A stretch of DNA of 64,000 nucleotides, from positions 3,008,001 through 3,072,000 of the forward strand of contig OY970296.1 of assembly GCA_963716175.1 (NCBI GenBank), in the 5' to 3' direction. The notes beneath the pieces were generated by a model, which worked only from the letters and a program-made list of their open reading frames with translations, did no database searches and had not been told where the DNA came from. Shown one piece after another: positions 3,564-39,115 of the stretch (within the stretch, counting starts at the first letter, position 1; every line of letters begins with the position of its first letter). Made by a program: the position numbers and the translations under genes. This stretch comes from an uncultured Armatimonadetes bacterium (GTDB taxonomy: Bacteria > Armatimonadota > Hebobacteria > Hebobacterales > Hebobacteraceae).

Positions 3564-6500
3564 CTACTTGCTACCGTTCGCGGAGGATCGGCTCATACGA
3601 CGCTGCTGAAGCCTTGCGCACTCCTCTTGGATGAGCGCGACTTCTGAGCGCGATAGGCCAAGGCCCTCCCGGAGGACCAGCCCATCCAGCTCGCTCCACA
3701 CGTTGGGATGAGCGCCCGGTTTCCTCAGGGCTTTGTCAAGCCGCGCCAGCTTTGCACTGATCCGGTCTACTACTCTCTGCGGGAACTTCTCCAGGTTTGG
3801 AAGGATCGCAGCTCGCGCGTCACGTGGCTCCAGCTTGAGTAGCCCGCCGCCATAGCCGCGCCCAACAAGCTCCAGGCTAAGCCCAGTGAGCGAGGAGTAG
3901 AACGACGCCAGGTAGGGCTTGACGAGGTCGCGGTGCGTCGTGAAGGACACGTGATGCAGTGTGTTGGTACTGTTGACCTTGGCTTCGTTCATGGTCATGC
4001 GGCACCGCCTGCCCGACATGTAGGTCAGAAAAGCATCAGGGGACGGCGGGTACGGCACGGAGTACCAAGGCCATCGCGTACGGCACTTGTACCTAAGGTG
4101 GACCCCCATTCGGTGTCCCTCGTCCAGGTACCTAGCGAGTTCCTCGTCAGCAGCAATGTCTGCGTCAGGCGGAACTCGCAGCAGCAGGTGCTGTGCATCC
4201 GCTTTCCGCAGTCTCGCCAGGTCCTCGCGCGAGAAGACCGCTCCTGCCACGTGGCTGGCGCTGGTGAGGACGGGCTTCAGCCACCCTCTCCTGATGCCTC
4301 TGGCCCGCGCGGCGCTGGGCGCTAGCGTGTAGAACTTAACATCGCCCGTGACGAGCCCGATGCCCACATTCGCCACACTCGCAAAGGGCAGAGCAAGCCC
4401 GCGTTCGATCAGCGACTCAAGGAGATCAAGCACATCCTGGCTGGTGAGCAGCGCCGTCCATTTCGTCGCTTGCCATCCCTGGCGCGCCTCAGGTGCGGCC
4501 GACGCGCGCTCCAGTGATCCTGCAAGGTCATCTGCCCCGCGCACCTCTGTGCGTCTCATCCCAGCCGCATCGGACGCGCTGGCCAGTAGCAGCAGCACAT
4601 CCTGCTGTTTCTCGAATACTCGGCCCTCGAAGAGCACGAACGACAGGCTTCGAAAGCGTTTCCGCAGGAATCTGCGCACAGGTTCAGCATAGTCTGCGGT
4701 TAGCAGCTCTGTCGGCAGTACCATGGCGAGGCGGCCCTGGGGGCGGAGGAAAGCCGTGGCGTGCAGCAGGTATGGCGCCCATGAACTGGCACTCGGCGAG
4801 AGTCGTGCATCCGGCCCAAGAGTGGCATTAAGGACCTTGTTCGCCGCTTCAAGCGCACGGGCGCGATCCGCTCCTTTGAACCGGTGGGCACGGACATACG
4901 GTGGGTTACCCACAACTGCATCAATACCGTGCGAAGGCCCGACGTCGCCAGGGGATACTGAGAAGAAATCGTCGCGGACCATGTGGTTGGCCGGCAGGCG
5001 CTGCCGTCCTCTCCACAGCTCCGCGAACTGGCGCCAAGCCAGTGCGTCCATCTCAACGCCGTAGACGTGCTGCCCGATGGCGTCGCGGCCAGCACCCAAC
5101 GACGACAGCCTGTCACAAGCCTCACGCAGGAACTCTCCGTCACCAGATGCCGGGTCCAGAACGGCATCTGACCGGTTCCTCACCGCCCAGGAGACCAGGA
5201 ACCTAACTATGCCGGTAGGCGTGGCGACCGCGCCGCGGATCTTCGCCGCTGCGCTTGCGAACAGACTCTCTCCGTCTGACGCCATGCTGTCGGCGGGCGA
5301 CGTGCTAGGCAGGGCAGGTATGGAGACGGTGCGAAGCCGCGGTGCCACCGATGGCGGCACAAACACGTCGGCGAACGGCTCGTAGCGGCGACTCGCCTTG
5401 TAGCTCCTCGCAATGTCGTCCAGGGAGATGGAGCCAAAGAGATCGCGGGTGGGCGGCTGGGCGAACCGGAATGACTTGCGAATGGCGGAGTGGATGATCA
5501 CAAGCGCAGGAGGGACTCCCAGGTCGCGCGCGAGAATCTCTTCCAGATACCGGCTCTGCAGTTGAGCGGACTGGTGCCGAGCAACTCTCCCGGAGGACGC
5601 GTCGCCGTTGGCAACCGAGTTCCCCTCACCATGCTGAGAGGACTCGCGTCGGGGGCGACCGCCGGACAGCCGGGCCGTCAGCGACAGGTGAACTAGCGGC
5701 GCTGATTCACTGGCGGACACGAACAGAGTGCCTGTCTCGAGTTGATTCAGGATGTGGCGGGCCGTCTCATGTCCTGCGATGCGCCGGTAGACCTGTGTGT
5801 CGGTCATGCGCAGGAACACCTTGGTCGATCCCAGCCGCAAGGTCGGATCAGACTCACTGGGACTCGATACGTCCCCGGGCCCTGGGAAGGCTAGCTCCAA
5901 CGCGCGGGTTAGCATTGCCTCCGCCGCCATTCCGCGAGGTGAGTAGATAAAGCCCTCGTATATCCTGCGCTCAAGCTCAAAGAAGTCACGGACTAGCGCT
6001 TCCGTATCCGACCCGGCATCCAGCAGAAGGTTCGGGCCGACCTTGCGGAACGCTTGGGCGAGGGCCACCGGCTCGGGGTAGGGCAGGCCAACCGACCTTG
6101 CAGTGCGGGTGACTCCCTCGAGCGCGTCGACTGACAGAGTCCCGTTCACGAGCAGGTTGAGCACTGCCACCTCGTCGCCGGGTGGCATCAAGGCGGAGTC
6201 CGCTCTACCCGCCCGCGATGGCGCTAGCGCCCCCGCCAGAAGGTCCCTCGCCATCGCGATCTGCGACGCCAGCTCCGGCTGTCCTTCCGAGCGCATGTCC
6301 CTGGAGAACTCGGAGGCCAACCTCCGGGCATCGCCTTGGTGGAACCTGCCTAGGCGCTTCCGGAGGAAGACTTCGGCACCATGCGATAGCGCCGTATGGC
6401 CTATGTCATGTAGTAGTGAAGCCAGGACTATCAGGGTAATAGATCGATCGCTTAGGGCGAGGGCCTCCGCTATGGTCCGGCTCAGTTCGGCCACCGCGAG

Positions 6501-6680
6501 CGAGTGCTCGTATCGCGAGTATGAGCGCTGCAACTTGACGACGTACTCCATCGTGCCGAGGAGCCGGATATCTTTGAGGCGCTGCAGGTACCCGCGATCC
6601 AGCACCGGAGCCAGGCCCATTGCCCGCAGCCTGTTCTCGATGGCCTGCACCGAATCGAGTGGGTGCTGCTCTTCAGCCAT
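3564..6680 (-). CDS. Fusion of an HD-domain phosphohydrolase (SAMHD1/dNTPase-like) and an N6-adenine DNA methyltransferase with C-terminal TRD
   Basis: N-terminus LQRLKDIRLLG, SRYEHSL, LLHDIGHTALSH; C-terminus VLDPASGDGEFL, GVEMD, VVGNPPY, GRGYGGGLLKLEP. Start placed at ATG 6680, overlapping the upstream stop. Confidence 0.85.
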   Translation of the reverse strand: MAEEQHPLDSVQAIENRLRAMGLAPVLDRGYLQRLKDIRLLGTMEYVVKLQRSYSRYEHSLAVAELSRTIAEALALSDRSITLIVLASLLHDIGHTALSHGAEVFLRKRLGRFHQGDARRLASEFSRDMRSEGQPELASQIAMARDLLAGALAPSRAGRADSALMPPGDEVAVLNLLVNGTLSVDALEGVTRTARSVGLPYPEPVALAQAFRKVGPNLLLDAGSDTEALVRDFFELERRIYEGFIYSPRGMAAEAMLTRALELAFPGPGDVSSPSESDPTLRLGSTKVFLRMTDTQVYRRIAGHETARHILNQLETGTLFVSASESAPLVHLSLTARLSGGRPRRESSQHGEGNSVANGDASSGRVARHQSAQLQSRYLEEILARDLGVPPALVIIHSAIRKSFRFAQPPTRDLFGSISLDDIARSYKASRRYEPFADVFVPPSVAPRLRTVSIPALPSTSPADSMASDGESLFASAAAKIRGAVATPTGIVRFLVSWAVRNRSDAVLDPASGDGEFLREACDRLSSLGAGRDAIGQHVYGVEMDALAWRQFAELWRGRQRLPANHMVRDDFFSVSPGDVGPSHGIDAVVGNPPYVRAHRFKGADRARALEAANKVLNATLGPDARLSPSASSWAPYLLHATAFLRPQGRLAMVLPTELLTADYAEPVRRFLRKRFRSLSFVLFEGRVFEKQQDVLLLLASASDAAGMRRTEVRGADDLAGSLERASAAPEARQGWQATKWTALLTSQDVLDLLESLIERGLALPFASVANVGIGLVTGDVKFYTLAPSAARARGIRRGWLKPVLTSASHVAGAVFSREDLARLRKADAQHLLLRVPPDADIAADEELARYLDEGHRMGVHLRYKCRTRWPWYSVPYPPSPDAFLTYMSGRRCRMTMNEAKVNSTNTLHHVSFTTHRDLVKPYLASFYSSLTGLSLELVGRGYGGGLLKLEPRDARAAILPNLEKFPQRVVDRISAKLARLDKALRKPGAHPNVWSELDGLVLREGLGLSRSEVALIQEECARLQQRRMSRSSANGSK

Positions 6681-7953
6681 GGGGTGCTTCTGCCTCGCCG
6701 GATGGTGAGGGGGGCATTGCTTGGCCGACCTCAATGTATGCGCGGTGCTGCCACTCGACCCACCGCGTCGGTGCCACCGGATGGAACCCGCCAGGGCGCG
6801 ATTGGTCCGGCATCTCGATCTCCACACCAGGAAACCAGTTGAAGATGCTGAACTGAAAGGAATCGGCGAGCACTCTGTCCTTTAACCTCCTGGCGAATGC
6901 GATGGTCCGCGTCACGCTACCGTCAGTGTCAAACGGGAAGCCGACTATGAACCCGGCGGAGACGCTGATACCCGCATCCCGAAGCACCGCGAGGGCGTCC
7001 TCCGCCTGGCCCAAGTCAACGCGCTTATGTATGCGCTGGAGAATTTCGGGATCGCCCGACTCCAGCCCTACATAGACTCGGTGGCAGCCTGCCCGCGCCA
7101 TCTCGCGAGCAAGGTCGGCGTTGACTGCGTCAACTCGTGCGTTGCAGAACCACGTCACACTCCGCTGCAGCCCGCGGATGCCTTCACAAAGCCGAGCAGC
7201 ATATTCCCGGTCAGCCATGAAGTCGGGATCAACGAACGATAGTTCGCGGATTCCTCGGTCGCCCGTCAAGTACTCTACCTCAATCAGAACACTCTCGGCA
7301 GACCGCACGCGTCGGCGGCTACCGCTGATCGCCGGTACGCTGCAGAAGGCGCAGCGGTACGGACATCCCCGCTGGGCCTCGATGATAGTGACGGGCGTCT
7401 GGACGCAGTCTGGACTCCAGTAGTGTGAGAAGTCCGGAACCAAGTCCCATGCTGGCATCGGCACGCGCGAGAGTTCGGCCGCCTGTCTCCTCGGGTGCAC
7501 CTGATCCCCCCTGCAGAAGACGCCCGGGATACCCGACAGGCTGCCGCCCGATGACAGCCTCTTACACAGGTCTCGCATGATCGGCTCGCCGTCACCTACT
7601 GCCGCCATATCGAACTCTGCACTCTCGAGGGCGACATCCGGCGCCGCTGTTGGGAGCGGCCCTCCCACGATCACCGCCACGCTGTGTGCAGCCTTCGCAG
7701 CCGCGGCAAAGCGCCGGACCGGTGCGACGGTCAATGTTGACAGGGTCATTCCCACCAGGTCCGGCATCCAGCCGTCGAGACCGGCCAGAACTCCGTTGTC
7801 GTCAACTCCGCGCGCATCCGCATCAACAAGTCGCATGTCAGCGATATCTCTGATGCAGGCGGCAATGTAGAGCAGACCCAAAGGAGGCAGCCGGGTCTCA
7901 CACCTGGTGAAGCCGGCCTGCACGCCCTTCGGCTGGACCAACAGCACATTCAT
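6673..7953 (-). CDS. Cobalamin-binding radical SAM protein (class B methyltransferase-like)
   Basis: B12-domain motifs PPLGLLYIAA, VGGP, GDGE; CxxxCxxC in RGCPYRCAFC; GLESG; FIVGFP. Confidence 0.9.
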   Translation of the reverse strand: MNVLLVQPKGVQAGFTRCETRLPPLGLLYIAACIRDIADMRLVDADARGVDDNGVLAGLDGWMPDLVGMTLSTLTVAPVRRFAAAAKAAHSVAVIVGGPLPTAAPDVALESAEFDMAAVGDGEPIMRDLCKRLSSGGSLSGIPGVFCRGDQVHPRRQAAELSRVPMPAWDLVPDFSHYWSPDCVQTPVTIIEAQRGCPYRCAFCSVPAISGSRRRVRSAESVLIEVEYLTGDRGIRELSFVDPDFMADREYAARLCEGIRGLQRSVTWFCNARVDAVNADLAREMARAGCHRVYVGLESGDPEILQRIHKRVDLGQAEDALAVLRDAGISVSAGFIVGFPFDTDGSVTRTIAFARRLKDRVLADSFQFSIFNWFPGVEIEMPDQSRPGGFHPVAPTRWVEWQHRAYIEVGQAMPPSPSGEAEAPHG

Positions 7954-17097: not shown

Positions 17098-20000
17098 CTA
17101 CATCGGCAACTGAAACGCCCTCGCGATGTACACCGCCATCTGGTCGCGGGTGACGGGGTCGGCCGGTTTGTAGGTGCCATCCTCATACCCCTTCACCACG
17201 TTGTGGTCCACGCAGGCCTTGATCGCTACACCTGACCAGTAGCCGGCCGGCACATCCGGGAAGAGCTGCGGGGCGGTGTTGAGGGCGTCGCTGAGCGTGA
17301 CCCATCCCTTGGCGCGGGCGATGAACACCGCCATCTGGCCCCGGTCCACCACCAGCGTGGGCTGGTAGTGAGTGGCGTCATAGCCCTGCACCACACCCTG
17401 GGCCACCGCATACTCGACGTACTTGTAGGCCCACTGATCAGTGGGGACGTCATCGGGGAAGCTGGCGGTGGCCGGACCTGTGGGCACGTTGGCATCGCCC
17501 CCGGCTAGAGCGCGGCTTACGTAAACCGCCATCTGGTCGCGACTGACCGGCTCGGTGGGCTTGTAAGTGCCATCGGAGTAGCCCTGCACGATGCCGGCGT
17601 CAACCAGCGAAGCAATAGCCGATTCGGCCCAGAAACCGGCTGGGACGTCAGTGAACTGGGGTGGGAGCACAAGGTCAACTGTGGTGGTCTGCCCCGCGGT
17701 AATCACCACACCGGTCTGAGTGGCAGCGCCGTGCCCATGCGCAGTCGCCTTGACGGTCGTCCCCGTGGTCTCGGCGACGTCAATGGTGAAGGTCCCATTG
17801 GCATCGGCCGCGGTGTATAGATTCCCGCCGATCCAGATATCGGCGTAAGGAATGGGACCGCCGGTGGTAGCATCGGTCACAGCACCACTGACGGTGCCGA
17901 AGCTGCGTATGTGAGGCTCCCACATGCGGATAGCCCCCACGGAATCGCTTCCCGCCTGACTGGCAGTGACTACGAAACGCCCGTTGGCGCTCATGTCAGG
18001 AGGATCCCCACCTATTCCCCCTTCGACGAAGGCGTTATAGAGCACGACGCTCCCGATGCCCGTACGGTCTCGGACCACGATGTACCCGGTCCCGCCTCCA
18101 TACGTCCCTGGCACTACGTAGTAAAACGCGACCATCTGGCCATCCGCGCTCACCGCGACCGGGTAGGACGGATGGTACAGGCTGTATGGGGTTGCCGGCG
18201 CGTCGCCGGGCATCAGGCTGGCGAACTCCGTGGTCCCGGCCACCCGGTCACGCAGGTAGACATTACCATGACCGATGGGGCTGAAGTACGTATTGTAGAT
18301 GGGGACCAGATCATTGGCGTCAGAGCAAAAGGCCACGAAACGACCATCATGGCTCATCATCGCCACGCCGGACCAGTTGTCAGGCGCGACGATTTGCTGC
18401 GAACCGTCCTCGGCGAGGCTTACGCGTTCAGTTGTCGCTGTGGTCAGGTCGTGGAGGAAGGTGTCGATGATCCCGTTGGTGTCCCCTGCTACCAGGTTCG
18501 TCGCGGCCGATGAGAAGGCTACATAGCGGCCGTCGGCACTGATGCAGGGATCCGTTGATGGGCCGTCGGCCTGGGCCCCGTTGCTGGCCACGCTGACGCG
18601 CACTGTGCGTTTGGTCAGGAGATTGTGCACGAACACATCCGTCTGCCCGTTGGTGTCGTCCGGGACCAGGTTCGTGGCATCAGAACTGAAGCAGACATAG
18701 CGGCCGTTGGCGCTGATCGTGCCGTGGGCAATGCTATCCGCCGGCGTGCCGTCACTGGCAGCGCTGGCCAAGGTTAGGCTGGACGTCTCGCGGTCGTACA
18801 CGTAGGTCTGCCAGACTCCGGGCGGCACGTCAGGAGGCAGGACCACCGGTGAGTACGCCACATACCGCCCGTTAGCGCTGACTGAGGCGGCGGAGCCGCC
18901 GATGGCCTGAGAACCGTCCTCCGTCTTGCTGATCAGTTCGATCTGCCCAGTCGATCGGTCCAGGAGGAAGACGTTTCCCGTCTGCCCCGGTGGCAGCGGG
19001 ACCAAGTCTGTGGCGCTGGAGGCGAAGACAACATAGCGCCCGTCCGGGGTGATCACGGGGCTGTAGGAGTTCCCGTTCGGGAAAGTATTCCCGCTCATGG
19101 AGTGCACGATGATCTCCGGGTGCACGGCCCAATCCGATATAGTCCAGGGCTGCAGCGGGAAGTCAATCCCTGAGGTCGTCTGCTGATCCACGACCTCGAC
19201 GTTCGAGACTTCACCAGCGTCATAGCCTCGCATCACGGCGGTGATGGTCCAGGTCCCCGGCCAGGCGGCAAGGGCATACGTGCCGTCAGCGGCACTTATG
19301 GTCTCACCCTGGCCGCCATAGACGGTAACGCCCCCGAGCGGCTGAAGGGTGACGGCATCTCGGACGGTTCCCGTGACCGTGCCCCTGGCGATCTGGAGTG
19401 CGAAATCCACTGTCGTGGCTGCGCCCGACACCACCACGACGCTGTCCATCGTCAATGATCCGAAACCGGCGCCGCTGGCAGTCACGGAGTAGGTGCCTTC
19501 CGGCACGACCGGCAGCAGATAGCCTCCGCTGCCATCTGTGATCGCCCTCAGGTAGCTATAGGTGACTGACCCGCCAATGACGGGGTTGCCGCTGCCGGCG
19601 TCAGTGACTGTCCCTTGGATCAAGCCGATGCCCTGCGCGACATCGCGCACCTCAATCTGCTGGTTGGCGGCCACCCCGTTCTCGGTGACGATGTGATGGT
19701 TGGGGAAGACCACTTGCACCGCCACCGTAGTGGCGGTGCCGAGGCCGAACTGGCCTATGGGCTCATTCTGGCCCATGAACCCCGACCCCCCGTCAACCAT
19801 GCGCGTGAGGGTACGACCCGGGGGGAAGGAGAGGTCGTTGTCCAGATTCACCAGGATGCGGGCACCCAGCGCGTCCCGCACCGGACTGCCGTCGGTGGCG
19901 TCGCCGGTGGCGCTGGTGAGGGCGCGCACCCGCAGCCAGTGCCCATCGCCAGGCGAACCGAGGTTGTGGTAGAGCAGGGATGTGTCGCTGTCGGAGGCGC

Positions 20001-21117
20001 CGAGGAGATCCATGCTGCCGTCCCGGTCGAAGTCGGCCCAGCAGATAGCCGTGTAGTTCCGACCCGCGCTCACTCCCTCTGCGAGGCTCAGGTCCGTGAA
20101 CGTGCCGTCTCCATTGTTGTGAAAGAGGAAGGGCGCGATGCTGCCGCTGGCGGGACCGACGATGAGATCCAGAAATCCGTCGTTGTCGTAGTCGGCCCAG
20201 GCGGTGCCGCGCGTGGGCATGCTGACTGCTGACATCCCTACGAGGTCCAGCACAGAATCGAAGTGGCCGCCGGTGTTCATGCAGAAGACCGATTCCTCCG
20301 TCCGTCCATTGCCGATGAAAACGTCCAGCCAGCCGTCATTGTTGTAGTCTCCCCAGGCGACGCCGGTGCTGTCGTGTCCGGGGAAGCTGCCCGAGGAGAA
20401 CGTACCGTCTCCCTTGTTCGTGAAGAGATAGGCGTTCGTCTGCTTGGCTGGATCGAAGATGCTTCTCTGCCGCGTCATCGCCACATCCAAGAAGCCGTCA
20501 TTGTTGTAGTCGGCCCAAGCGCACCCCATGCCGTCCATGGGACTGCCCATCCCCGCCGCAGCCGTGACGTTCGAGAATGTGCCATCGCGGTTGTTGTGAT
20601 ACAGGACAGAGGGGCCGTAGTCGTTGTAGGAAACGAAGAGGTCGAGCCAGTTGTCCCCGTCGAAGTCGCCCCAGCTCGCCCCTCGACCGAAGAAGGCGCC
20701 GGTCATCGGTGCGAAACCAGCGGTTGCTCCCACATCCGTGAAATGGTCGCCGTCATTCCGGTACAGGTGCGGAGTGTGGGAGCCGCCGATGATGATGAGA
20801 TCCAGCCTGCCATCGTTGTTGTAGTCACCCCAGGCGCATCCCCATTCGTCATATGAGACCGTGTCAAGTCCCTTGGCAGCGGTGACGTCCGTGAAGGTCC
20901 CATTGCCGTTATTGTGCAGCAGCACACATGGGCCGGTCCCGCCGATATAGAGGTCAGGGTAGCCGTCGTTGTCATAGTCGCCCCAGGCCGCGCCCATGGC
21001 CGCCGGAATGTTCAGAGTGGTACCTAGGTCGGCAAAACGACCGGCGGACGCGCGACCCGAAAGGAGAAGACCGCCCAACAGCAGCACAACGGAGAGCCCC
21101 AGAGTCCGAGATGCCAT
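17098..21117 (-). CDS. Secreted FG-GAP/ASPIC-UnbV protein with carboxypeptidase-regulatory-like repeats, TolB-like propeller and SLH domains
   Basis: Signal peptide; repeated WGDYDNDG; GTVTDA..G.P repeats; ISADGRYVAF repeats; C-terminal GYxDGTYKP..VTRDQMA SLH motifs. Confidence 0.85.
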   Translation of the reverse strand: MASRTLGLSVVLLLGGLLLSGRASAGRFADLGTTLNIPAAMGAAWGDYDNDGYPDLYIGGTGPCVLLHNNGNGTFTDVTAAKGLDTVSYDEWGCAWGDYNNDGRLDLIIIGGSHTPHLYRNDGDHFTDVGATAGFAPMTGAFFGRGASWGDFDGDNWLDLFVSYNDYGPSVLYHNNRDGTFSNVTAAAGMGSPMDGMGCAWADYNNDGFLDVAMTRQRSIFDPAKQTNAYLFTNKGDGTFSSGSFPGHDSTGVAWGDYNNDGWLDVFIGNGRTEESVFCMNTGGHFDSVLDLVGMSAVSMPTRGTAWADYDNDGFLDLIVGPASGSIAPFLFHNNGDGTFTDLSLAEGVSAGRNYTAICWADFDRDGSMDLLGASDSDTSLLYHNLGSPGDGHWLRVRALTSATGDATDGSPVRDALGARILVNLDNDLSFPPGRTLTRMVDGGSGFMGQNEPIGQFGLGTATTVAVQVVFPNHHIVTENGVAANQQIEVRDVAQGIGLIQGTVTDAGSGNPVIGGSVTYSYLRAITDGSGGYLLPVVPEGTYSVTASGAGFGSLTMDSVVVVSGAATTVDFALQIARGTVTGTVRDAVTLQPLGGVTVYGGQGETISAADGTYALAAWPGTWTITAVMRGYDAGEVSNVEVVDQQTTSGIDFPLQPWTISDWAVHPEIIVHSMSGNTFPNGNSYSPVITPDGRYVVFASSATDLVPLPPGQTGNVFLLDRSTGQIELISKTEDGSQAIGGSAASVSANGRYVAYSPVVLPPDVPPGVWQTYVYDRETSSLTLASAASDGTPADSIAHGTISANGRYVCFSSDATNLVPDDTNGQTDVFVHNLLTKRTVRVSVASNGAQADGPSTDPCISADGRYVAFSSAATNLVAGDTNGIIDTFLHDLTTATTERVSLAEDGSQQIVAPDNWSGVAMMSHDGRFVAFCSDANDLVPIYNTYFSPIGHGNVYLRDRVAGTTEFASLMPGDAPATPYSLYHPSYPVAVSADGQMVAFYYVVPGTYGGGTGYIVVRDRTGIGSVVLYNAFVEGGIGGDPPDMSANGRFVVTASQAGSDSVGAIRMWEPHIRSFGTVSGAVTDATTGGPIPYADIWIGGNLYTAADANGTFTIDVAETTGTTVKATAHGHGAATQTGVVITAGQTTTVDLVLPPQFTDVPAGFWAESAIASLVDAGIVQGYSDGTYKPTEPVSRDQMAVYVSRALAGGDANVPTGPATASFPDDVPTDQWAYKYVEYAVAQGVVQGYDATHYQPTLVVDRGQMAVFIARAKGWVTLSDALNTAPQLFPDVPAGYWSGVAIKACVDHNVVKGYEDGTYKPADPVTRDQMAVYIARAFQLPM

Positions 21118-21193
21118 CGCACATTCCCCCTAGTACAGCAGTACCGGGCCCCCTCGAAAGTGACGATGGCCAGAACTAGCGGCCCGTGGTCCG

Positions 21194-21222
21194 ATTGTAC
21201 CTCGGCCCCGGGCTCAATGCAA
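21194..21222 (-). promoter_or_regulatory. Sigma70-type promoter of the first SLH gene
   Basis: TTGCAT-17bp-TACAAT on the minus strand. Confidence 0.5.
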
Positions 21223-21294
21223 CCGCCCAGCCCGCCCTTGCGCCTCGCTGAGACAGGCTGAAGGCTACACTACTCGCCATCTACCCGCAACCGC

Positions 21295-23901
21295 TCACAC
21301 CGGCAACTCGAACGCTCTCGCGATATACACCGCCATCTGGTCGCGAGTCACGGGATTGGTAGGCTGGTAGGTGCCGTTGTCATATCCCTTGACCACGTCG
21401 TGATCCACGCAGGCCTTGATCGCCACGCCCGACCAGTAGCCGGCCGGCACATCTGGGAAGAGCTGCGGGGCGGTGTTGAGGGCGTCGCTGAGCTTGACCC
21501 ATCCCTTCGCCCGGGCGATGAACACCGCCATCTGACCGCGATCCACCACCAGCGTGGGCTCGTAGTGAGTGGCGTCATACCCCTGTACCACGCCCTGGGC
21601 CACCGCGTACTCGACATACTTGTAGGCCCAGAAATCAGTAGGGACATCATCGGGGAAGCTGGCGGTGGCCGGCCCTGTGGGCACGTTGGCATCACCCCCG
21701 GCCAGAGCGCGGGAGATGTAGACCGCCATCTGGTCGCGGGTGACCGCCACTTCAGGATGGTAGGTGCCATCGGGATAGCCTAGCGCGATGCTGGCGTTAG
21801 ACACGGCCTCGATGGCGCCGAAGGCCCAGAACTGATACCCCGCGTCCGTGAACTTGTCCTCCGCAAGCGCCGCCGCCACATCCTTCACTACGATTGTCTG
21901 GTTCACGGCGATGTCGTAGTGAATGACCACCGTGCCGTCCGGGAAGCGCACCCGCACCGCCACTGGCCCATCAGTAGGGATGCCGAACTGCGCCACCTGC
22001 TCGCTCTCAGCGCAGAAGCCGGACCCGCCGTCGATGAGCCGAGTCAGGGTGTGGCCAGGCGGGAAACTGGCGTCGTTGTCCACGTTCAACTCGACCCGTG
22101 CGCCGATGGCGTCACGCGTGGGTTTGCTGGTGTCAGTGGTATCACCGGCGGCACTGGTGATAGCGCGCAGCCGCAGCCAGTTGTCGCTAGTGCCGATGTT
22201 GTGGAAGAGCCAAGATGGCGTATCGTAGAGCGCTTGTACCACATCCACGCGACCGTCAAGATTAACGTCGGCCCACGCAACCCCGCCGCTGGCGCCCTGG
22301 TGATCAACGTCGAGGCCCGACCCGGCCACCATGTTCGTGAATGTGCCATTACCGTTGTTGTGGTAGAGAAACGGCTGCTGACCAAAGTTGCCAACGAACA
22401 GGTCAAGGTAACCGTCGTTATCGTAATCAGCCCAGGCCGCGCCCTGCGCGTTGTAGGCGTCGCCTGCCATGCCGGCAACGTTGGCGACGTCAGTGAACGT
22501 GCCATTGTGGTCGTTGTGGAAGAGCCAGTCGGGCGCTGATTCGCCGCTCGTGAAATAGCAGTCAAGCCAGCCGTCGTTATCGTAGTCTCCCCAGATCGCG
22601 CTTAGTGTGTTCACCGGAATGGTTACTCCGGCCTGAGCACTCACATCGGTGTAGGTTCCGTCACCGTTGTTATGAAAAAGCATGGCTGGTTTGTACATGC
22701 GAGCGAGAAGCAGATCGGGGTGGCCATCGTTGTCGTAGTCGCCCCAGGCGGCCGATTGGACGGCATCAGCTCCCCCCAGACCGGCAGCTGCAGCAATATC
22801 GGTGAAGGTGCCATCACCATTGTTCCGCAGCAGATAGGCGTTCCCGAAAATGTTGCACACAAAAGCATCCAGCAGGCCGTCGCCGTTGAAGTCGCACCAC
22901 GACACGCTGCTGCCGGCATTGAACGCCACATGCAGGCCGGCATCGGCGCCGAGCTCCACGAACTGAGACGGATCGCGACGGAATAGCCACGGGTAGGCAT
23001 CGCCACCAACCAGGACATCAAGGAGGCCGTCGTTGTTGTAGTCGCCCCACGCAACCCCAGAGTCTGGCGCGGGTGCAGTGGGGAGTTTCAGCGTTTGGCT
23101 CACGTCAGCGAATGTGAGATCATGGCCATTGCGAAAGAGCATTGGTCCGTGTTGGGGATGGGAAGTCCCCTGATCGTAGCCCCCAAAGAACAAGTCCGGG
23201 TACCCGCCGCTGTCATAGTCACCCCAGCCAACACCAACCGAGTTTGGGAGGTTAAGCCCGGTGACTTGCTCGAACTGCGGCCCTGCCTTGACTGGCAGTT
23301 GCGCCAGCGAGAAGTCTTGCGTCGCGGTCTGCCCCGACACCACCGCCACACCCGTCGCGCTCCCCCACTTGTGGCCTCCGGCGGCCGCGCCGACGCGATA
23401 GCCCGTGCCCACAGGGACGTTGGCGAGGGTATAGCTGCCATCGACACTAGTGGTCGCGCTCAGCGCGCCGCAGGTGACATGCGCCCACTGGATGGGCAAG
23501 CCGCTGGCCCCGTCCGTGACCCGGCCCACGATAGAGCCAAAGGCGGTCGGCGACAGCGAGAAGTCCACCGTGCTGATCTCGCCCTCGACCACCGCGACGG
23601 TGCTGGCCGAAGACGGGGTGTGATCCGGAGCGCTGGCGGCAACCGTGTAGCTCCCGATGCCCAGGTCTGAGAACCCGTACCGGCCCCTGGCATCCGTGGT
23701 TGCGGTGAGGCTGCCACAGGACATAGCTGCCCCGCCGATGGGCAGTCGGGTAGCCGAATCCGACACCACCCCTGCGATGGCGCCAGTGGGGGTTACCGCC
23801 AGGGCCAGCTTCAGCGCGGCACCGTCGGCCTGGCAGGCCACTGCGAAGAGAGAAATGAGAAACGCCAGCACGATAGCAGGGACAGCCGTTCTTCGGGCCA
23901 T
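21295..23901 (-). CDS. Secreted carboxypeptidase-regulatory-like/FG-GAP/ASPIC-UnbV/SLH protein (paralog of 17098-21117)
   Basis: Signal peptide MARRTAV..., WGDYDNDG repeats, SLH triplet nearly identical to the neighbour; start chosen from the shared 5' leader. Confidence 0.85.
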   Translation of the reverse strand: MARRTAVPAIVLAFLISLFAVACQADGAALKLALAVTPTGAIAGVVSDSATRLPIGGAAMSCGSLTATTDARGRYGFSDLGIGSYTVAASAPDHTPSSASTVAVVEGEISTVDFSLSPTAFGSIVGRVTDGASGLPIQWAHVTCGALSATTSVDGSYTLANVPVGTGYRVGAAAGGHKWGSATGVAVVSGQTATQDFSLAQLPVKAGPQFEQVTGLNLPNSVGVGWGDYDSGGYPDLFFGGYDQGTSHPQHGPMLFRNGHDLTFADVSQTLKLPTAPAPDSGVAWGDYNNDGLLDVLVGGDAYPWLFRRDPSQFVELGADAGLHVAFNAGSSVSWCDFNGDGLLDAFVCNIFGNAYLLRNNGDGTFTDIAAAAGLGGADAVQSAAWGDYDNDGHPDLLLARMYKPAMLFHNNGDGTYTDVSAQAGVTIPVNTLSAIWGDYDNDGWLDCYFTSGESAPDWLFHNDHNGTFTDVANVAGMAGDAYNAQGAAWADYDNDGYLDLFVGNFGQQPFLYHNNGNGTFTNMVAGSGLDVDHQGASGGVAWADVNLDGRVDVVQALYDTPSWLFHNIGTSDNWLRLRAITSAAGDTTDTSKPTRDAIGARVELNVDNDASFPPGHTLTRLIDGGSGFCAESEQVAQFGIPTDGPVAVRVRFPDGTVVIHYDIAVNQTIVVKDVAAALAEDKFTDAGYQFWAFGAIEAVSNASIALGYPDGTYHPEVAVTRDQMAVYISRALAGGDANVPTGPATASFPDDVPTDFWAYKYVEYAVAQGVVQGYDATHYEPTLVVDRGQMAVFIARAKGWVKLSDALNTAPQLFPDVPAGYWSGVAIKACVDHDVVKGYDNGTYQPTNPVTRDQMAVYIARAFELPV

Positions 23902-23956
23902 CGCACACCCCCCTGATGCAGCAATACCGGACCCCCTCGAAGCGGCCCGTGGCGAC

Positions 23957-23985
23957 AGTATAGCGCGGCGCCAGGTGTAGGACAA
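23957..23985 (-). promoter_or_regulatory. Sigma70-type promoter of the second SLH gene
   Basis: TTGTCC-17bp-TATACT on the minus strand. Confidence 0.5.
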
Positions 23986-24169: not shown

Positions 24170-25093
24170 CTAGCCTGGCTGATCGCCTGCCGGCCCGAGC
24201 ATCCCCTCCAGCTTCTCGACGGCGGCCAGCTTGGTGCGCACATCCGAGTGCAGGTATCTCGCCGTCGTCCCGATGTCCGCGTGCCCCAGCAGCTCCTGCA
24301 CCGTGCGGATGTCGGCGCCCGAGCGGATGAGGTGGGTGGCAAAGGTATGGCGGAGTTTGTGGGGGGTAATGCCTTTGCCCGCGAGCCCGGCTTTGCCGAG
24401 CGTGCGCGCCAGCATCCGGCTGATGGCTCTGCCGGAGATGGGCTGGCCGAACTGGCTCACAAAGAGCCGGTGGCTGTCCGTCCTCTTGCGCTGGCGCAGG
24501 TACTGCTCGATGGCCGCAACGGCCTGCTCTGCCAGAGGCACCACTCTCTCCTTCGCCCCTTTGCCGTGTACCAGCAGTTGCCGGTTCTCCAGGTCCAGAT
24601 CCTCCAGGCTGATCTGGGCGATCTCGCTGCGCCGCATGCCCGTGGAGAGCAGCAGCACCACCAAGCACTTGTGCCAGGGCCGCTGGGCTGCCTGCAGGAG
24701 TCGCTGGGCATCTGCTTCCGTGAGCGTCACGGGCACCTGCTGTTCCAGTCTGGGCAGAGGCAGCCTGCGGGCGGGATTGCCCGAGACATGGCCCATGTCC
24801 TGGAGGAAGCCAAAGAAGGAGGACAACACCCAGAGCTTCCGTCTCACCGTCAGGGGTGCTCGATCTGCCAGGCTCACCGCGAACTGCATCACCTGCTGGC
24901 GCGTGATCTGATCGGGAGGGGGCGGCTGACCCAGGCGCTGGGAGAGGAACTCCGAGAAGGCCCGCAGGTCGCGGCGGTACGCCTTGACGGAGATGGGAGC
25001 GCAGCTGCGATAGCCCCTCAGGTACTCCAGGAACATCGCCACCGCCTCCTCGAAGGAGAGCGTGCCGGCCTCGGCGTCGTGGGTAGCGGTCAC
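24170..25093 (-). CDS. Tyrosine recombinase, XerC/D-like (copy 2)
   Basis: GMRRSE, HGKGAK, PHKLRHTFAT, LLGH, RY catalytic set; GTG start overlaps the upstream TGA (GTGA). Confidence 0.9.
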   Translation of the reverse strand: MTATHDAEAGTLSFEEAVAMFLEYLRGYRSCAPISVKAYRRDLRAFSEFLSQRLGQPPPPDQITRQQVMQFAVSLADRAPLTVRRKLWVLSSFFGFLQDMGHVSGNPARRLPLPRLEQQVPVTLTEADAQRLLQAAQRPWHKCLVVLLLSTGMRRSEIAQISLEDLDLENRQLLVHGKGAKERVVPLAEQAVAAIEQYLRQRKRTDSHRLFVSQFGQPISGRAISRMLARTLGKAGLAGKGITPHKLRHTFATHLIRSGADIRTVQELLGHADIGTTARYLHSDVRTKLAAVEKLEGMLGPAGDQPG

Positions 25094-26055
25094 GGCTGTG
25101 CTCCCTCCTCTCTCTGCGGAACACTCTCCCCGAGCAGACCCGTCAGCCTTCCTACTGCCGCCAGCTTCGTGCGCACATCCGAGTGCAGGTACCGCGCCGT
25201 CGTCCCCAGATCGGCATGGCCCAGGAGCTCCTGCACGGTGCGCACATCCACGCCCTTGTGGATGAGCTGGGTAGCGAAGGTGTGGCGCAGCTTGTGAGGG
25301 GTAATCCCCTGGCCCGCCAGCCCCGCCTTCTCCAGCACCTGGTCCAGCATGGCGTTGACCACGTGGCCTCGGATGGGCTGTCCACGGGAGTTCACAAAGA
25401 GCCGCCGGCTCTGGGTGCGGGGCCGGTGGGGCAGGTACTGCTGGATGGCCGCCACGGCCTGACGGGTGAGGGGGACGATCCGCTGCTTGGCTCCCTTCCC
25501 GTGCACCAGCAGTTGCCGGTTGGTCAGGTCCACCTCCTCCAGGCTGATCAGCACCGCCTCGCTTCTGCGCAGGCCCGTCGCCAGCAGCAGCATGATGAGG
25601 CACCGATGCCAGGGCAGTTCGGCCGCCGCCAGCAGTTGCTGCGCCTGCTCCTCTGAGAGCGTCACCGGGATGTGCTGCTCCAGCTTCGGGAGGGGTAGTC
25701 TCTTGGCGGGATTGCCCTGGACATAGCCCATATCCTGAAGGAAGCCGAAGAAGGAGGAGAGACAGGCCAGCTTGCTGCGCACCGTGATCGGGGACCAGTG
25801 CGACAAGGAGACCGCGTACTGAATCACCAGCTGGCGGGTGATCGCAGCCGGAGCTGGCAGCGGCCCGGGTTGCGAGGAGAGGAACTGCTGGAAGTTGCGC
25901 AGGGTCGTGGCGTAGGCTCGGACAGAGGCAGGAGCGCAGCTGCGGTAGCTCCGCAGGTACTCCAGGAACATCGGCACCGCCTGCTCCAAGGGGAGCTCGT
26001 CCCCGGTGGAGGGCGGTGCGGCACGGGCCGCTTCGGCCTGGGCGAGAGTGGTCAT
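25090..26055 (-). CDS. Tyrosine recombinase, XerC/D-like (copy 1)
   Basis: GLRRSE, HGKGAK, PHKLRHTFAT, LLGH, RY; GGAGG RBS before ATG 26055. Confidence 0.9.
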   Translation of the reverse strand: MTTLAQAEAARAAPPSTGDELPLEQAVPMFLEYLRSYRSCAPASVRAYATTLRNFQQFLSSQPGPLPAPAAITRQLVIQYAVSLSHWSPITVRSKLACLSSFFGFLQDMGYVQGNPAKRLPLPKLEQHIPVTLSEEQAQQLLAAAELPWHRCLIMLLLATGLRRSEAVLISLEEVDLTNRQLLVHGKGAKQRIVPLTRQAVAAIQQYLPHRPRTQSRRLFVNSRGQPIRGHVVNAMLDQVLEKAGLAGQGITPHKLRHTFATQLIHKGVDVRTVQELLGHADLGTTARYLHSDVRTKLAAVGRLTGLLGESVPQREEGAQP

Positions 26056-26216
26056 GCACGCCTCCTCTGGTGGATGGTTGCGGCATGACATGAATCACTT
26101 CAAGCGGCGAACAAGTCCAGGCCTTTGTGCAAGTATTCTGTGGGGTGGGCCCTAGTGCGGGTATTTCGTATCCCCTCGATTTCGGGCCAGGATGGCTCTA
26201 GGAGCCACGAGAAGAG

Positions 26217-26610
26217 TGGAGTGGGCCGATAAGCCGAGTTTTGGCGCGACATTCGCCCGATACGTCAGGTTATGTCGCGAGCGTCCATCTATCTAGGGCT
26301 GCGATCGCTCGCAGCCTCAAGCGGCCAACCCGGGGCTGATGCGGCGTCGGGCCAACGCTGGTCCCCAACCGGGGACTCGCCCCCTATTTGGCCTTGCTCC
26401 GGGCGGGGTTTGGCCAGCCGGTGTGTCTCCACGCCGCTGGTGCGCTCTTACCGCACCATTTCACCCTTGCCCAGCTCGCGCCGGGCGGTATGTTTCTGTG
26501 CCACTTTCCGTCGGGTCGCCCCGCCTGGGCGTTACCCAGCGCCCTGCCCTGTGGAGCTCGGACTTTCCTCGTTCCGCCATCGGCGAACCGCGGACGCTTG
26601 GCCCACTCCA
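26217..26610 (-). ncRNA. rnpB: RNase P RNA (bacterial type A-like)
   Basis: GAGGAAAGTCCGAGCTCC near the 5' end, GGAAAGTGGCACAGAAA, GGTAAGAGCGCACC, AAAACTCGGCTTAT near the 3' end; P1 TGGAGTGGGCC/GGCCCACTCCA. Confidence 0.95.
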
Positions 26611-26615
26611 TCTCC

Positions 26616-26624
26616 ATTCTACCA
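26616..26624 (-). promoter_or_regulatory. Extended -10 promoter of rnpB
   Basis: TGGTAGAAT (TGn-TAGAAT) just upstream of the P1 start. Confidence 0.55.
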
Positions 26625-27081
26625 CATGCTCGGCGTCTCCGCGCCAACCGGCCGCACTGTCCTCGCCAGAGCATGTCTCACTTCCCGGAGCAGGTGCCAC
26701 GCGCCTCGGATGTGACCGTCTATGGCTGCCCAGGCGGCCTAGCACAGTTGATGCAGGGTATGCGGGGCGTGATTCTCACAGCGGCCACGGAACCGATGCA
26801 GGTGGAGATGTAAGGCCGTTGTCATCCGCGCGCGACATGAATGCTGGCCCGCGTACACCCCGCGCGGACTGATCCCGCCGTCACCACGGGCGAATCATGC
26901 CGGTGGCATTGACCGCGAGTTCCGGCCTGCACATTTCGGTCGACCGGGATGCGAAGGCGGCTAGACTTCTTCACCCATCGAAACTGGTTGATTCCACGAT
27001 CTGCTGAAAGCCGCTGAACAAGTCCGGGTGTGCCCCTCACCCGGCAGCAAGCTGTTTTCGTCGGCAAACATGACAGTCAAT

Positions 27082-27262
27082 CGGTAGGCTGAGTTCTGGC
27101 GCGAACGTCCTGCCCTGTGGACCTCGGACTTTCCTCAGCCGCCTCTCGGCGACCGCGGACGCCTGGCCCACTCCATCTGCATACCACCATGATGCTCGGC
27201 ATGGTCGCGCTGACCAGCCGCACGACCCTTGTTAACATGAGTCTCCCCCGCCCTGGAGCAGG
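27082..27262 (-). repeat. Internally deleted rnpB copy A (mini-rnpB 27082-27175) plus homologous upstream region
   Basis: GGAGTGGGCCAGGCGTCCGCGG...GAGGAAAGTCCGAGGTCCACAGGGCAGG joined directly to a 3'-end-like GCGCCAGAACTCAGCCTACCG; ~85 bp upstream resembles 26611-26695. Confidence 0.85.
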
Positions 27263-27282
27263 ATACGGGTACACAACGTACC

Positions 27283-27311
27283 TTGACAGGTCATGTCGAT
27301 ATGACTATCAT
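27283..27311 (+). promoter_or_regulatory. Promoter and operator of the TA operon
   Basis: TTGACA-17bp-TATCAT with palindrome GTCAT-N6-ATGAC in the spacer. Confidence 0.75.
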
Positions 27312-27340
27312 GGTCTCGTAGGGGAAAGGCAAGGAGCGCC

Positions 27341-27631
27341 ATGAGAACCGCAGCCATCTCCCGTCTGAAGGCCAAGCTTAGCGAGCACATCGCGTGGGTC
27401 AAGCGCGGGGAGGAGGTCCTGGTGACCGAACGCGGGAAGCCGGTCGCGCGCATCGTGCCGGTGGCCCCGGGGACAGCGGGTGACGACCGAATGCCGGGGC
27501 TGATCGCTCGAGGCATCGTGCGATTGGGGAAGAAGCAGCTCCGCAAGGCGCTCTCGGATTTGCCCGTCTGCAGGGTGCCGAAAGGAGCAGTGCTGCGCGC
27601 TCTGGACGACGAAAGGCAGGACCGAGCATGA
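27341..27631 (+). CDS. Phd/YefM-family antitoxin
   Basis: LKAKLSEHIAWVKRGEEVLVTERGKPVARIVP; ATGA overlap with the toxin. Confidence 0.9.
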   Translation: MRTAAISRLKAKLSEHIAWVKRGEEVLVTERGKPVARIVPVAPGTAGDDRMPGLIARGIVRLGKKQLRKALSDLPVCRVPKGAVLRALDDERQDRA

Positions 27632-28059
27632 GGTGGTGGGATACCTCAGCCCTGTTGTCTCTGTTGCTGCAACAGGAGACGACTGACGAGCTCAAGGCGC
27701 TGCTCGCGTCAGACGACACTCTCGTAGTGTGGTGGGGCACAAAGGTGGAGGCAGTCTCTGCCGTGTCCCGGCTGCAGCGCGATGGCTATACTGAGTCCCG
27801 CGTCAGCGCTCGCCTGTTCAAGCACCTAGATGGCCTGCTGTCAGCGGCCTACGAAGTGCAGCCGCTGGAAGAGGTCCGCGCCACGGCCTGCCGAGCGCTT
27901 CGCGTCCATGAACTGCGCGCCGCGGACGCGCTGCAGTTAGCAGCAGCCCTCGTTTGGGCAGAGCACCATCCCACAGGATTAGGCTTCGTGTGCCTGGACC
28001 GCAGGCTTCGCGAGGCAGCCACGCGCGAGGGATTTGAGGTACTGCCCGAATCGTCGTGA
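27628..28059 (+). CDS. vapC: VapC-family PIN toxin
   Basis: WDTSAL, LRAADALQLAAA, FVCLDRRL..AA..EG. Confidence 0.9.
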   Translation: MRWWDTSALLSLLLQQETTDELKALLASDDTLVVWWGTKVEAVSAVSRLQRDGYTESRVSARLFKHLDGLLSAAYEVQPLEEVRATACRALRVHELRAADALQLAAALVWAEHHPTGLGFVCLDRRLREAATREGFEVLPESS

Positions 28060-28127
28060 GCGCACTGCCGCGGGTGGAAGTGAACGCCAACGTAGACAGC
28101 CGGTCTCTCGTCGCTTAGTCGCTGAAT

Positions 28128-28302
28128 CGGTAGGCCGAGTTTCGTCGCGAGCGCCCTGCCCTGTGGAGCTCGGACTCTCCTCGGCTGCCACAAGCGGCGA
28201 CTGCGGACGCTTGGCCCACTCCATTGGGATTGCAGCACATTCCGAGCGCGCGGTCCTCCGCTAACCCGCTGCCAATGGGCCCGTCGCACTCCAGGCGGTG
28301 CC
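28128..28302 (-). repeat. Internally deleted rnpB copy B (mini-rnpB 28128-28223) plus weakly homologous upstream region
   Basis: GGAGTGGGCCAAGCGTCCGC...GAGGAGAGTCCGAGCTCCACAGGGCAGGGCGCT joined to CGCGACGAAACTCGGCCTACCG. Confidence 0.85.
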
Positions 28303-28509
28303 GAAGCACCTACCGGCGATTATGGAACTCAAGTGCATCTGGGGAGACTGGGAGGTTCTCCACTGCCGGGCTCGGCGCCGTCTGACACCCGGAATGTGCT
28401 CCTGTGTGACAGTGGGGGCAGGCACTTGGCCGACGGCAGCGAATCTGCGCGGCAGCGCAATGAAGCTGGGTTTCGTGCGGTTGCGGGTCTCCGGCTGGGA
28501 GGGCCTCCG

Positions 28510-39042: not shown

Positions 39043-39115
39043 TAGGCCGTCTGGGATTCGAACCCAGGACACCCGGATTAAAAGTCCGGTGCTCTACCGA
39101 CTGAGCTAACGGCCC
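39043..39115 (-). tRNA. tRNA-Lys(UUU), CCA not encoded
   Basis: GGGCCGTTAGCTCAGTCGGTAGAGCACCGGACTTTTAATCCGG...GGTTCGAATCCC..ACGGCCTA cloverleaf. Confidence 0.97.

Follow-up and report, generated by a model that had tools for sequence, protein, structure and literature searches.

Truncated rnpB copies upstream of a working RNase P RNA gene: probable relics of earlier copies at a predicted island attachment site

The window considered here is a stretch of 64,000 nucleotides (nt) from the genome of an uncultured armatimonadote (G000 in what follows). It holds a working gene for the bacterial type A RNase P RNA, rnpB (26214..26609, minus strand; 282.9 bits against Rfam model RF00010, model positions 1-367), and, upstream of it on the same strand, two short rnpB-like units, miniA (27079..27174, minus) and miniB (28125..28222, minus), with a Phd/VapC toxin-antitoxin (TA) module between them. 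The minis are probably non-functional relics of older rnpB copies, which would have been stranded by successive insertions at an attachment (att) core in the 3' end of the gene and would then have decayed.

The two minis and their surroundings

Each mini consists of rnpB nt 1 to ~72 (the 5' strands of P1, P2 and P4, and P3) followed by ~25 nt of the 3' core, the join being made to the segment past the P2 3' strand of rnpB. MiniA, which runs from GGAGTGGG at 27174 down to CCGATT at 27079, continues after the join with the P2 3' strand, J2/4, the P4 3' strand and a tail; miniB, which lies directly beyond the vapC stop codon, has the same architecture. The junction is a 7-nt direct repeat, present in rnpB as GGGCGCT (nt 66-72) and GGACGCT (nt 324-330), 258 nt apart, and reading GGACGTT in miniA (27104..27110, minus) and GGGCGCT in miniB (28150..28156, minus). 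Missing from both minis are rnpB nt 73-330, that is, the specificity domain (P7-P14) and the P15-P18 region, and both read GCCTACCGATT at the place of rnpB GCTTATCGGCC. An earlier note on this DNA had described such a fusion of the first ~70 nt (~72 by our alignment) to the 3' P4 segment, at an equivalent junction and with the common GCCTACCGATT, and that description holds. Its shared deletion of ~290 nt is also real, but smaller; the excess over 258 nt is a ~33-nt hairpin (26243-26285, minus; GCGACAT...ATGTCGC) between the P2 and P4 3' strands of the present rnpB, which occurs neither in the minis nor in the 3' ends of the other family rnpBs compared. The specificity domain is gone, as the note said. 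The 3' strand of P1 is not merely lost; it is replaced by a conserved non-rnpB tail, CCGATTGACTG or CCGATTCAGCG (the AATCGGTAGGC that the note had seen on the plus strand), which is not complementary to GGAGTGGGCC, so that P1 stays unclosed.

Neither mini reaches the RF00010 gathering threshold of 100 bits. The Rfam search proposed in the earlier note returned a weak match for miniA (20.2 bits, E 0.013) and listed none for miniB at E <= 0.1; apart from rnpB, the only feature of the window to pass an Rfam gathering threshold is a tRNA gene at 39043-39115 (minus; 75.2 bits). Searching the whole genome with miniA gave three matches, namely miniA, rnpB and miniB, to which a sensitive blastn search of the genome added only short att repeats.

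In their 5' parts the minis agree with each other at 58/66 positions and with rnpB at 57/66 and 60/66. With these figures, and with the gene conversion described below, the single deleted ancestor deduced in the earlier note is not required, although the shared junction and the shared GCCTACCGATT still fit it. The ~85 bp of promoter-side DNA that was thought to be co-duplicated comes down to ~60 nt common to rnpB and miniA (z 7); the similarity is weak between rnpB and miniB (z 2-3) and absent between miniA and miniB (z ~1). Spacer S, from the miniA tail to rnpB (26610..27078), resembles the DNA upstream of miniA in its ~60 rnpB-proximal nt. Its positions 26640-27078 matched only themselves in a search of 15 family genomes, and no open reading frame with the GC3 pattern of coding DNA was found in the spacer. 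The spacers beyond the two tails are unrelated to each other.

The layout is no mis-assembly, since independent metagenome contigs carry the same junctions, and with this the mis-assembly that the earlier note had named as a possible refutation falls away and its placing of two minis on either side of a TA module stands. One contig (L124; 1481 nt, eight differences) covers the TA module, miniA, the spacer and rnpB, another (L126; 1179 nt, 96.6% identical) the kinase gene, miniB and vapC, and contigs from four public runs bridge spacer to miniA, miniA to the TA module, and vapC through miniB to the kinase gene. The region is carried by 24 public sequencing runs, all of them DNA. A metagenome scan for the mini junction gave 17 loci, two of which are the minis of close relatives in L124 and L126; nine are the ordinary rnpB of other organisms, in which P5 reads TCGCG by chance, and six are unrelated matches, so that none of the 17 is a same-junction mini from outside this species group. 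One contig from run X3 (depth 2.1, side 24) joins 27146 to 28195 and omits 1048 nt, including the TA module; it may represent a TA-less variant or an assembly-graph artefact across the repeat, and it is too weak to use. A contig joint of 26411 to 27101 most likely comes from the rnpB of other organisms and was set aside.

L126 also shows what has been happening to miniB. Of the ~40 differences listed for it over ~1180 nt, ~10 lie within 29 nt (28177..28205, minus), a tract in which miniB of this sister population reads like real rnpB; the 5' part of its mini is identical to rnpB at 73/74 positions, and the variants in the tract recur in runs X2 and X4. In the sister population, then, the P3 region of miniB has been overwritten with rnpB sequence by gene conversion, which shows that miniB is not keeping a P3 sequence of its own.

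The att core, the downstream islands and the tails

The 3' end of rnpB holds a 23-nt repeat, CTCGGCTTATCGGCCCACTCC plus AC (26216..26238, minus), that has four exact matches in the genome, all on the minus strand, and none in the control. The final 21 nt of rnpB recur exactly, on the rnpB strand, at G000 positions 2961781, 2877091 and 2843613, that is, ~72, 157 and 191 kb downstream of the gene. The rnpB gene and two of these repeats are each followed by a pair of recombinase genes, int1 and int2, the copies being 92-95% identical to one another in amino acid (aa) sequence; the third repeat is followed by a single, more distant recombinase (58-60%). An arm with CCGCTACC/CCTCCACC repeats precedes each core repeat. 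Many contigs of other family genomes also carry these arms and the repeat, and 13 of the 15 non-rnpB junctions listed from such genomes end in ...ATCGCGAC or ...GGAYCGACAA. Because repeat, arms and recombinase genes recur together, the rnpB 3' end is, as far as sequence can tell, the attachment site for a family of islands, four of which stand here in tandem.

The first gene of island 1, int1 (25090..26091, minus; PF00589, E 5.7e-44; PF02899), encodes a predicted Xer-like tyrosine recombinase, and its paralogues behind two other att repeats are 94-95% identical to it. Its tandem partner int2 (24170..25105, minus; DNA repeats D2 and D4) is 68% identical to it in aa sequence. The recombinases match XerC/XerD models best, at 223.6-236.2 bits (int1 against XerC, 223.6), under the equivalog cut-off of 335, and the genome contains seven near-full-length island-borne copies, unlike the single housekeeping copy expected of a XerC/XerD chromosome-dimer resolvase. 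Neither are they integrases of the IntI type: TIGR02249, with a cut-off of 265 bits, gives 105.4 and 128.1 for the two recombinases, and NF011946, with one of 435, gives 70.8 and 90.7.

The tandem array occupies positions 2843613-3034238 of contig G000:C1, with window positions 1-26238 as its upper end. Its four islands measure ~72, 85, 33 and at least 46 kb, and every one begins with the 23-nt repeat followed by recombinase genes; a search for the exact repeat did not reveal where the fourth ends. At 2797378-2797395 and 2797931-2797948 (plus) of the same contig, outside the window, there are two further arms of island type, in opposite orientation; each has the core hexamer and a non-rnpB right arm, one of these right arms reading TTACCGGCCGACCTGAGG. 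They could be secondary sites of attachment, or else the fourth island's inverted end. Window positions 1-26213 belong to island 1, which includes two very large genes at 17098-23985 (minus; ~1339 and 896 aa) built of repeats that match over ~53 nt and are spaced at ~150-160 nt (families D1, D3 and D5).

The tails of the minis connect them with this core. All tail-ended copies, those of other family genomes included, track rnpB as far as CTCGGC-TTA-nCG and diverge inside the att repeat. The att remnant of miniA (27077..27093, minus) consists of the hexamer CTCAGC, one change away from CTCGGC, and an 11-nt right arm, CTACCGATTGA, whose reverse complement matches the island left arm TCAATCGCGAC at 8/11 positions. 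That of miniB (28123..28139, minus) has the hexamer CTCGGC and the right arm CTACCGATTCA, whose reverse complement matches the left arm TGAATCGCGAC, at the end of island 3, equally well (8/11). The same comparison gives 7-8/11 in 8/8 tail copies, with a mean best match of 7.9 as against 3.8 +/- 0.5 in shuffles (7.9 being reached by none of 5000) and 0-5 in direct and reversed-only controls. The genuine rnpB end, for its part, matches the second arm type at 9/11. Since the reverse complement of the tail and the rnpB end both match island arms, the core can be written as a putative dif-like 11-6-11 site, with the tail as a strong right half-site. The exact 21-nt repeat, sought with up to three mismatches, has four matches in the genome, none of them in the minis, which share its first half only. 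The minis accordingly lack the exact repeat of the target 3' end that would mark an attR-type boundary; they resemble attL-type boundaries, where homology stops within the core and a half-site occupies the 11 nt that follow. (A search with the tail pattern at up to three mismatches gave 19 matches, against 14 for a reversed-pattern control; only matches overlapping rnpB-like sequence were used.)

Relics in related genomes and a proposed course of events

The TA module is an old neighbour of rnpB. Its predicted promoter, TTGACA, 17 nt, TATCAT (27283..27311, plus), lies over a palindromic operator-like sequence; no other sigma-70-like site was found in 26100-28500, and G008, G012, G005 and G006 have the TTGACA as well. 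The gene for a Phd/YefM-type antitoxin (27341..27631, plus; PF02604, 32.2 bits, cut-off 29.8, E 9.1e-8; TIGR01552, E 3.4e-9) is followed by that for a VapC-type PIN toxin (27628..28059, plus; PF01850, 29 bits, cut-off 23.6, E 1.8e-6), whose start overlaps the antitoxin stop by 4 nt. Antitoxin and PIN domains in two small overlapping genes with one predicted promoter are the marks of a type II TA module. (The possibility that VapC is a protein-only RNase P of the HARP kind was rejected: the generic PIN model alone matched, and the gene has its Phd partner.) VapC homologues occur in 5/31 genomes of the class, this one included, with 59-71% identity in the other four, G008, G012, G005 and G006. 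In G008 an orthologous TA module (67% nt identity) lies ~125 nt upstream of the real rnpB and divergent from it, and that rnpB stands at the place that miniA occupies here. Since the real gene holds that position in G008, miniA appears to mark a former working rnpB. Just past the vapC stop, at the miniB position, both G008 and G012, members of genus g9, carry decayed rnpB 3' fragments of differing extents, and the G012 fragment has ACGAAAC and GGCC in common with miniB; the miniB position therefore predates the separation of these genera. These orthologues of miniB have lost the hexamer or the tail, with the TA module still in place. On the same G008 contig (L054, G008:C157) an island-type arm, AAACCACC repeats followed by CTGGATCGGACAA, abuts the rnpB 3' fragment beside vapC at 5190-5270, the usual hexamer not coming directly after it, and a HicA-type TA pair lies at 6595-7067, between rnpB and a recombinase gene.

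Other genera of the family have tail-ended copies of their own upstream of rnpB, some full-length and some decayed, with unrelated accessory genes in between. A region-neutral RF00010 search of the 15 family genomes gave, in G002, G013 and G014, short matches that take in both ends of the model, and in G001 weak matches. In G011 the real rnpB (285.4 bits) has a full-length copy with a tail 7 kb upstream of it (G011:C1 4617273-4617635; 253.6 bits), and G007 has another (G007:C103 2502-2894; 256.7 bits); these two lack the P1 3' strand, and they and the G005 copy all end in the tail. The G011 copy is nearest to the rnpB of G011 itself (91%, as against 84% to the G007 copy), which argues for repeated origin or for homogenisation. 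G005 and G011, which belong to one genus, have a common architecture but align in their rnpB parts only: the cargo is an oxidoreductase and a two-component pair in G005, a BlaI-like repressor and IS21 in G011. G014 has two relics on either side of a second hemA, a divergent gene that is 52% identical to the other copy in that genome. G001 (one contig, 81% complete) has short or weak RF00010 matches and no full-length one, and a 5-kb stretch around its rnpB-like 3' end has no blastn match to the G000 rnpB. Many family assemblies break at rnpB, several of them with a contig end within a few hundred bases of the rnpB match, and weak RF00010 matches occur in intergenic DNA.

The course of events that we favour is the following. 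Segments made up of accessory genes and a nearly complete rnpB would have recombined at the att core more than once, presumably by way of the island recombinases. Each event would have placed a fresh rnpB at the genuine 3' end and stranded the previous one upstream, ending in the incoming arm, the tail, instead of the P1 3' strand; copies so stranded would be free to decay. A 258-nt deletion between the 7-nt direct repeats, guided by microhomology, would have removed the specificity domain, either once, with spread by gene conversion or by inheritance, or twice at the same repeat. The Phd/VapC module would be the old cargo of such an event.

Plain local duplication, by slippage or unequal crossing-over, is another and, in our judgement, unlikely origin: one copy would have lost its middle and been duplicated again, and the TA module would have landed later, with no site-specific recombination at all. 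The shared junction and GCCTACCGATT, the microhomology at the junction and the signs of decay in the minis are all expected on such an account, and gene conversion would simply be ordinary homologous exchange acting on copies. The DNA around the minis fits it badly. The two tails are followed by unrelated spacers, S being unique, and therefore the minis do not look like units of a tandem duplication; the adjacency of TA module and rnpB predates the split from genus g9, which argues against a later landing of the module between the minis; homology breaks off inside the att core in every copy, to be followed by a half-site; and the cargo differs between two species with the same architecture, G005 and G011. 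Four more specific schemes were rejected. Tandem duplication by unequal exchange with an upstream pseudo-site predicts duplicated spacers, which are not seen. Inversion between att sites cannot put a reverse-complemented left arm beside the hexamer. A transposon that has terminal inverted repeats and duplicates 9 nt of its target misfits G011, because the right end there is an entire rnpB. RNA-mediated (retro) copying is at odds with the ~60 nt of upstream DNA common to miniA and rnpB.

If the minis arose at a recombination site, they might still be one. The earlier note had suggested rnpB-derived recombination sites bounding the TA module, and the 3' ends of the minis are indeed junctions of att type; their present activity is doubtful. 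That they are still-active sites, between which the island recombinases move the TA module as a mobile cassette in the way that integron cassettes move between attC sites, strikes us as quite improbable. Both minis have kept the left arm, the hexamer and the strong right arm, nearly all relics from the region-neutral search have kept the 3' segment, and pairs of recombinase genes lie 1 kb away. The central hexamers of miniA and miniB nevertheless differ (CTCAGC and CTCGGC), and tyrosine recombinases normally fail where the exchanged segments do not match. The TA module has stayed in place in G008 and G012, where the decayed miniB orthologues have lost either the hexamer or the tail, and the integron-integrase models score 105-128 bits against their cut-off of 265.

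The relic interpretation can be carried further, tentatively, although we consider the extension rather doubtful. rnpB would anchor a two-sided system, with large recombinase islands stacked downstream and, upstream at the same core, small accessory cassettes lacking recombinases (TA module, spare hemA, regulators), each of which would bring a near-complete rnpB that becomes the working gene. The ribozyme gene would thus be serially replaced by horizontal transfer, and its relics would double as cassette boundaries.

RNA function, known parallels and meaning

Several points weigh against taking the minis for stranded relics. The inserting segment that is proposed was not seen in any free or empty form, and such an element would need ~350 nt of rnpB and a promoter, which is unusual. 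The common junction and the derived GCCTACCGATT are explained more simply by one deleted ancestor than by two displacements plus conversion. Common descent may link the tails, in which case the eight half-site comparisons are not independent. Some relics lie away from any assembled rnpB (G002:C184 and C254), for most others contig ends stand in the way of a placement, and G014, at 95% complete, has short or weak RF00010 matches and no full-length one. In the minis themselves, P2 (7/7 pairs, wobbles included) and a P3 hairpin can still form in both, much as the earlier note had said, the predicted fold of miniA is more stable than shuffles (z -3.3), and the loss of the mini promoters is a judgement from consensus.

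The last of these points lend some colour to a regulatory role, in which the minis would be expressed as ~95-nt RNAs with P2, P3 and P4 and would bind RnpA as RNase P decoys or regulators; both minis are, moreover, kept in several metagenomes. P2 pairing, however, follows by construction, because the deletion ran between two P2-like heptamer copies. P4, read off the alignment, is mismatched in miniA, as the note had it, with two A.C in eight pairs; in miniB, where the note had found it nearly intact, it has one A.C and one G.U, and the conserved GAGGAAAG is changed to GAGGAGAG. In P3, for which the note had given different stems, the differences between miniA and miniB break pairs, and no compensatory changes were found between the two. 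Their predicted folds differ beyond P3 (z for miniB, -1.5), and the P3 of miniB is completely different between sister populations. The -10 boxes read TGGTAT and TGCAAT in the minis, against TAnAAT/TAnACT in 7/7 full-length family copies; the A at the second position of the extended -10 box, present in all seven, is lost in both minis. A consensus scan of 26100-28500 found neither promoter nor terminator for either mini, and at the corresponding positions G008 and G012 retain quite other parts of rnpB. The minis are thus probably not working RNAs and probably not expressed, and a decoy or regulator, one of three possibilities entertained in the earlier note, is very improbable indeed. Decayed duplicates, another of the three, fit best.

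The nearest familiar setting for the downstream side is that of islands that integrate in tandem at the 3' ends of tRNA and tmRNA genes. As there, recombinase genes adjoin the RNA gene, a short direct repeat identical with the gene 3' end marks the island boundaries, and arm-type repeats and tandem arrays are found; here the target is rnpB instead, and in three of the four islands the first genes are a tandem pair for Xer-like recombinases. As a kind, the downstream islands are ordinary; what is unusual is their target and the pairing of their recombinases. That model leaves 3' fragments downstream only, and upstream relics with a 5' part and promoter side are not explained by it. dif sites have an 11-6-11 core, and IMEX elements exploit Xer recombination at them; the likeness lies in recombinases that match XerC/XerD models best and in a putative core of 11-nt inverted arms around CTCGGC. 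In contrast to Xer/dif, the scores here are under the equivalog cut-offs, the genes are island-borne and multi-copy, and the site is in an RNA gene and not at the replication terminus. Integron arrays share with this locus a recombinase beside the insertion point and accessory genes, TA modules included, separated by related site remnants; here, however, the recombinase is not IntI, the boundaries are gene relics and not folded attC sites, and rnpB stands between the array and the recombinase genes.

For the upstream side the dusA islands, which are reported to integrate in the 5' end of their target and to supply a replacement 5' end (PMC4482086), offer the incoming element that brings the promoter-proximal part of the target and displaces the old one. 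They differ in that the crossover here would be at the extreme 3' end of the gene, so that the incoming DNA would have to carry almost the whole of it. The RNase P RNA pseudogenes of animals are eukaryotic and dispersed, and the available part of an rnpB survey discusses duplications and pseudogenes for eukaryotes only (PMC2996960). No account of islands that target rnpB, or of arrays of rnpB relics in bacteria, came out of a literature search outside which many subscription papers lay; for the row of upstream relics it turned up no close described parallel, the dusA islands and integron arrays seeming nearest.

The minis themselves are most likely junk, and what the locus offers is an essential ribozyme gene as a recombination hot spot on both sides. 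A core of P2, P3 and P4 is no evidence of an RNA mimic where a microhomology-driven deletion yields it by construction. That rnpB breaks assemblies, and that weak RF00010 matches lie in intergenic DNA, matters for assembly and annotation. Paired Xer-like recombinases and a defined core in a conserved RNA gene make up a possible new site-specific integration system, and horizontal transfer may have exchanged the rnpB that a lineage now uses, which would undermine the gene as a phylogenetic marker in this group.

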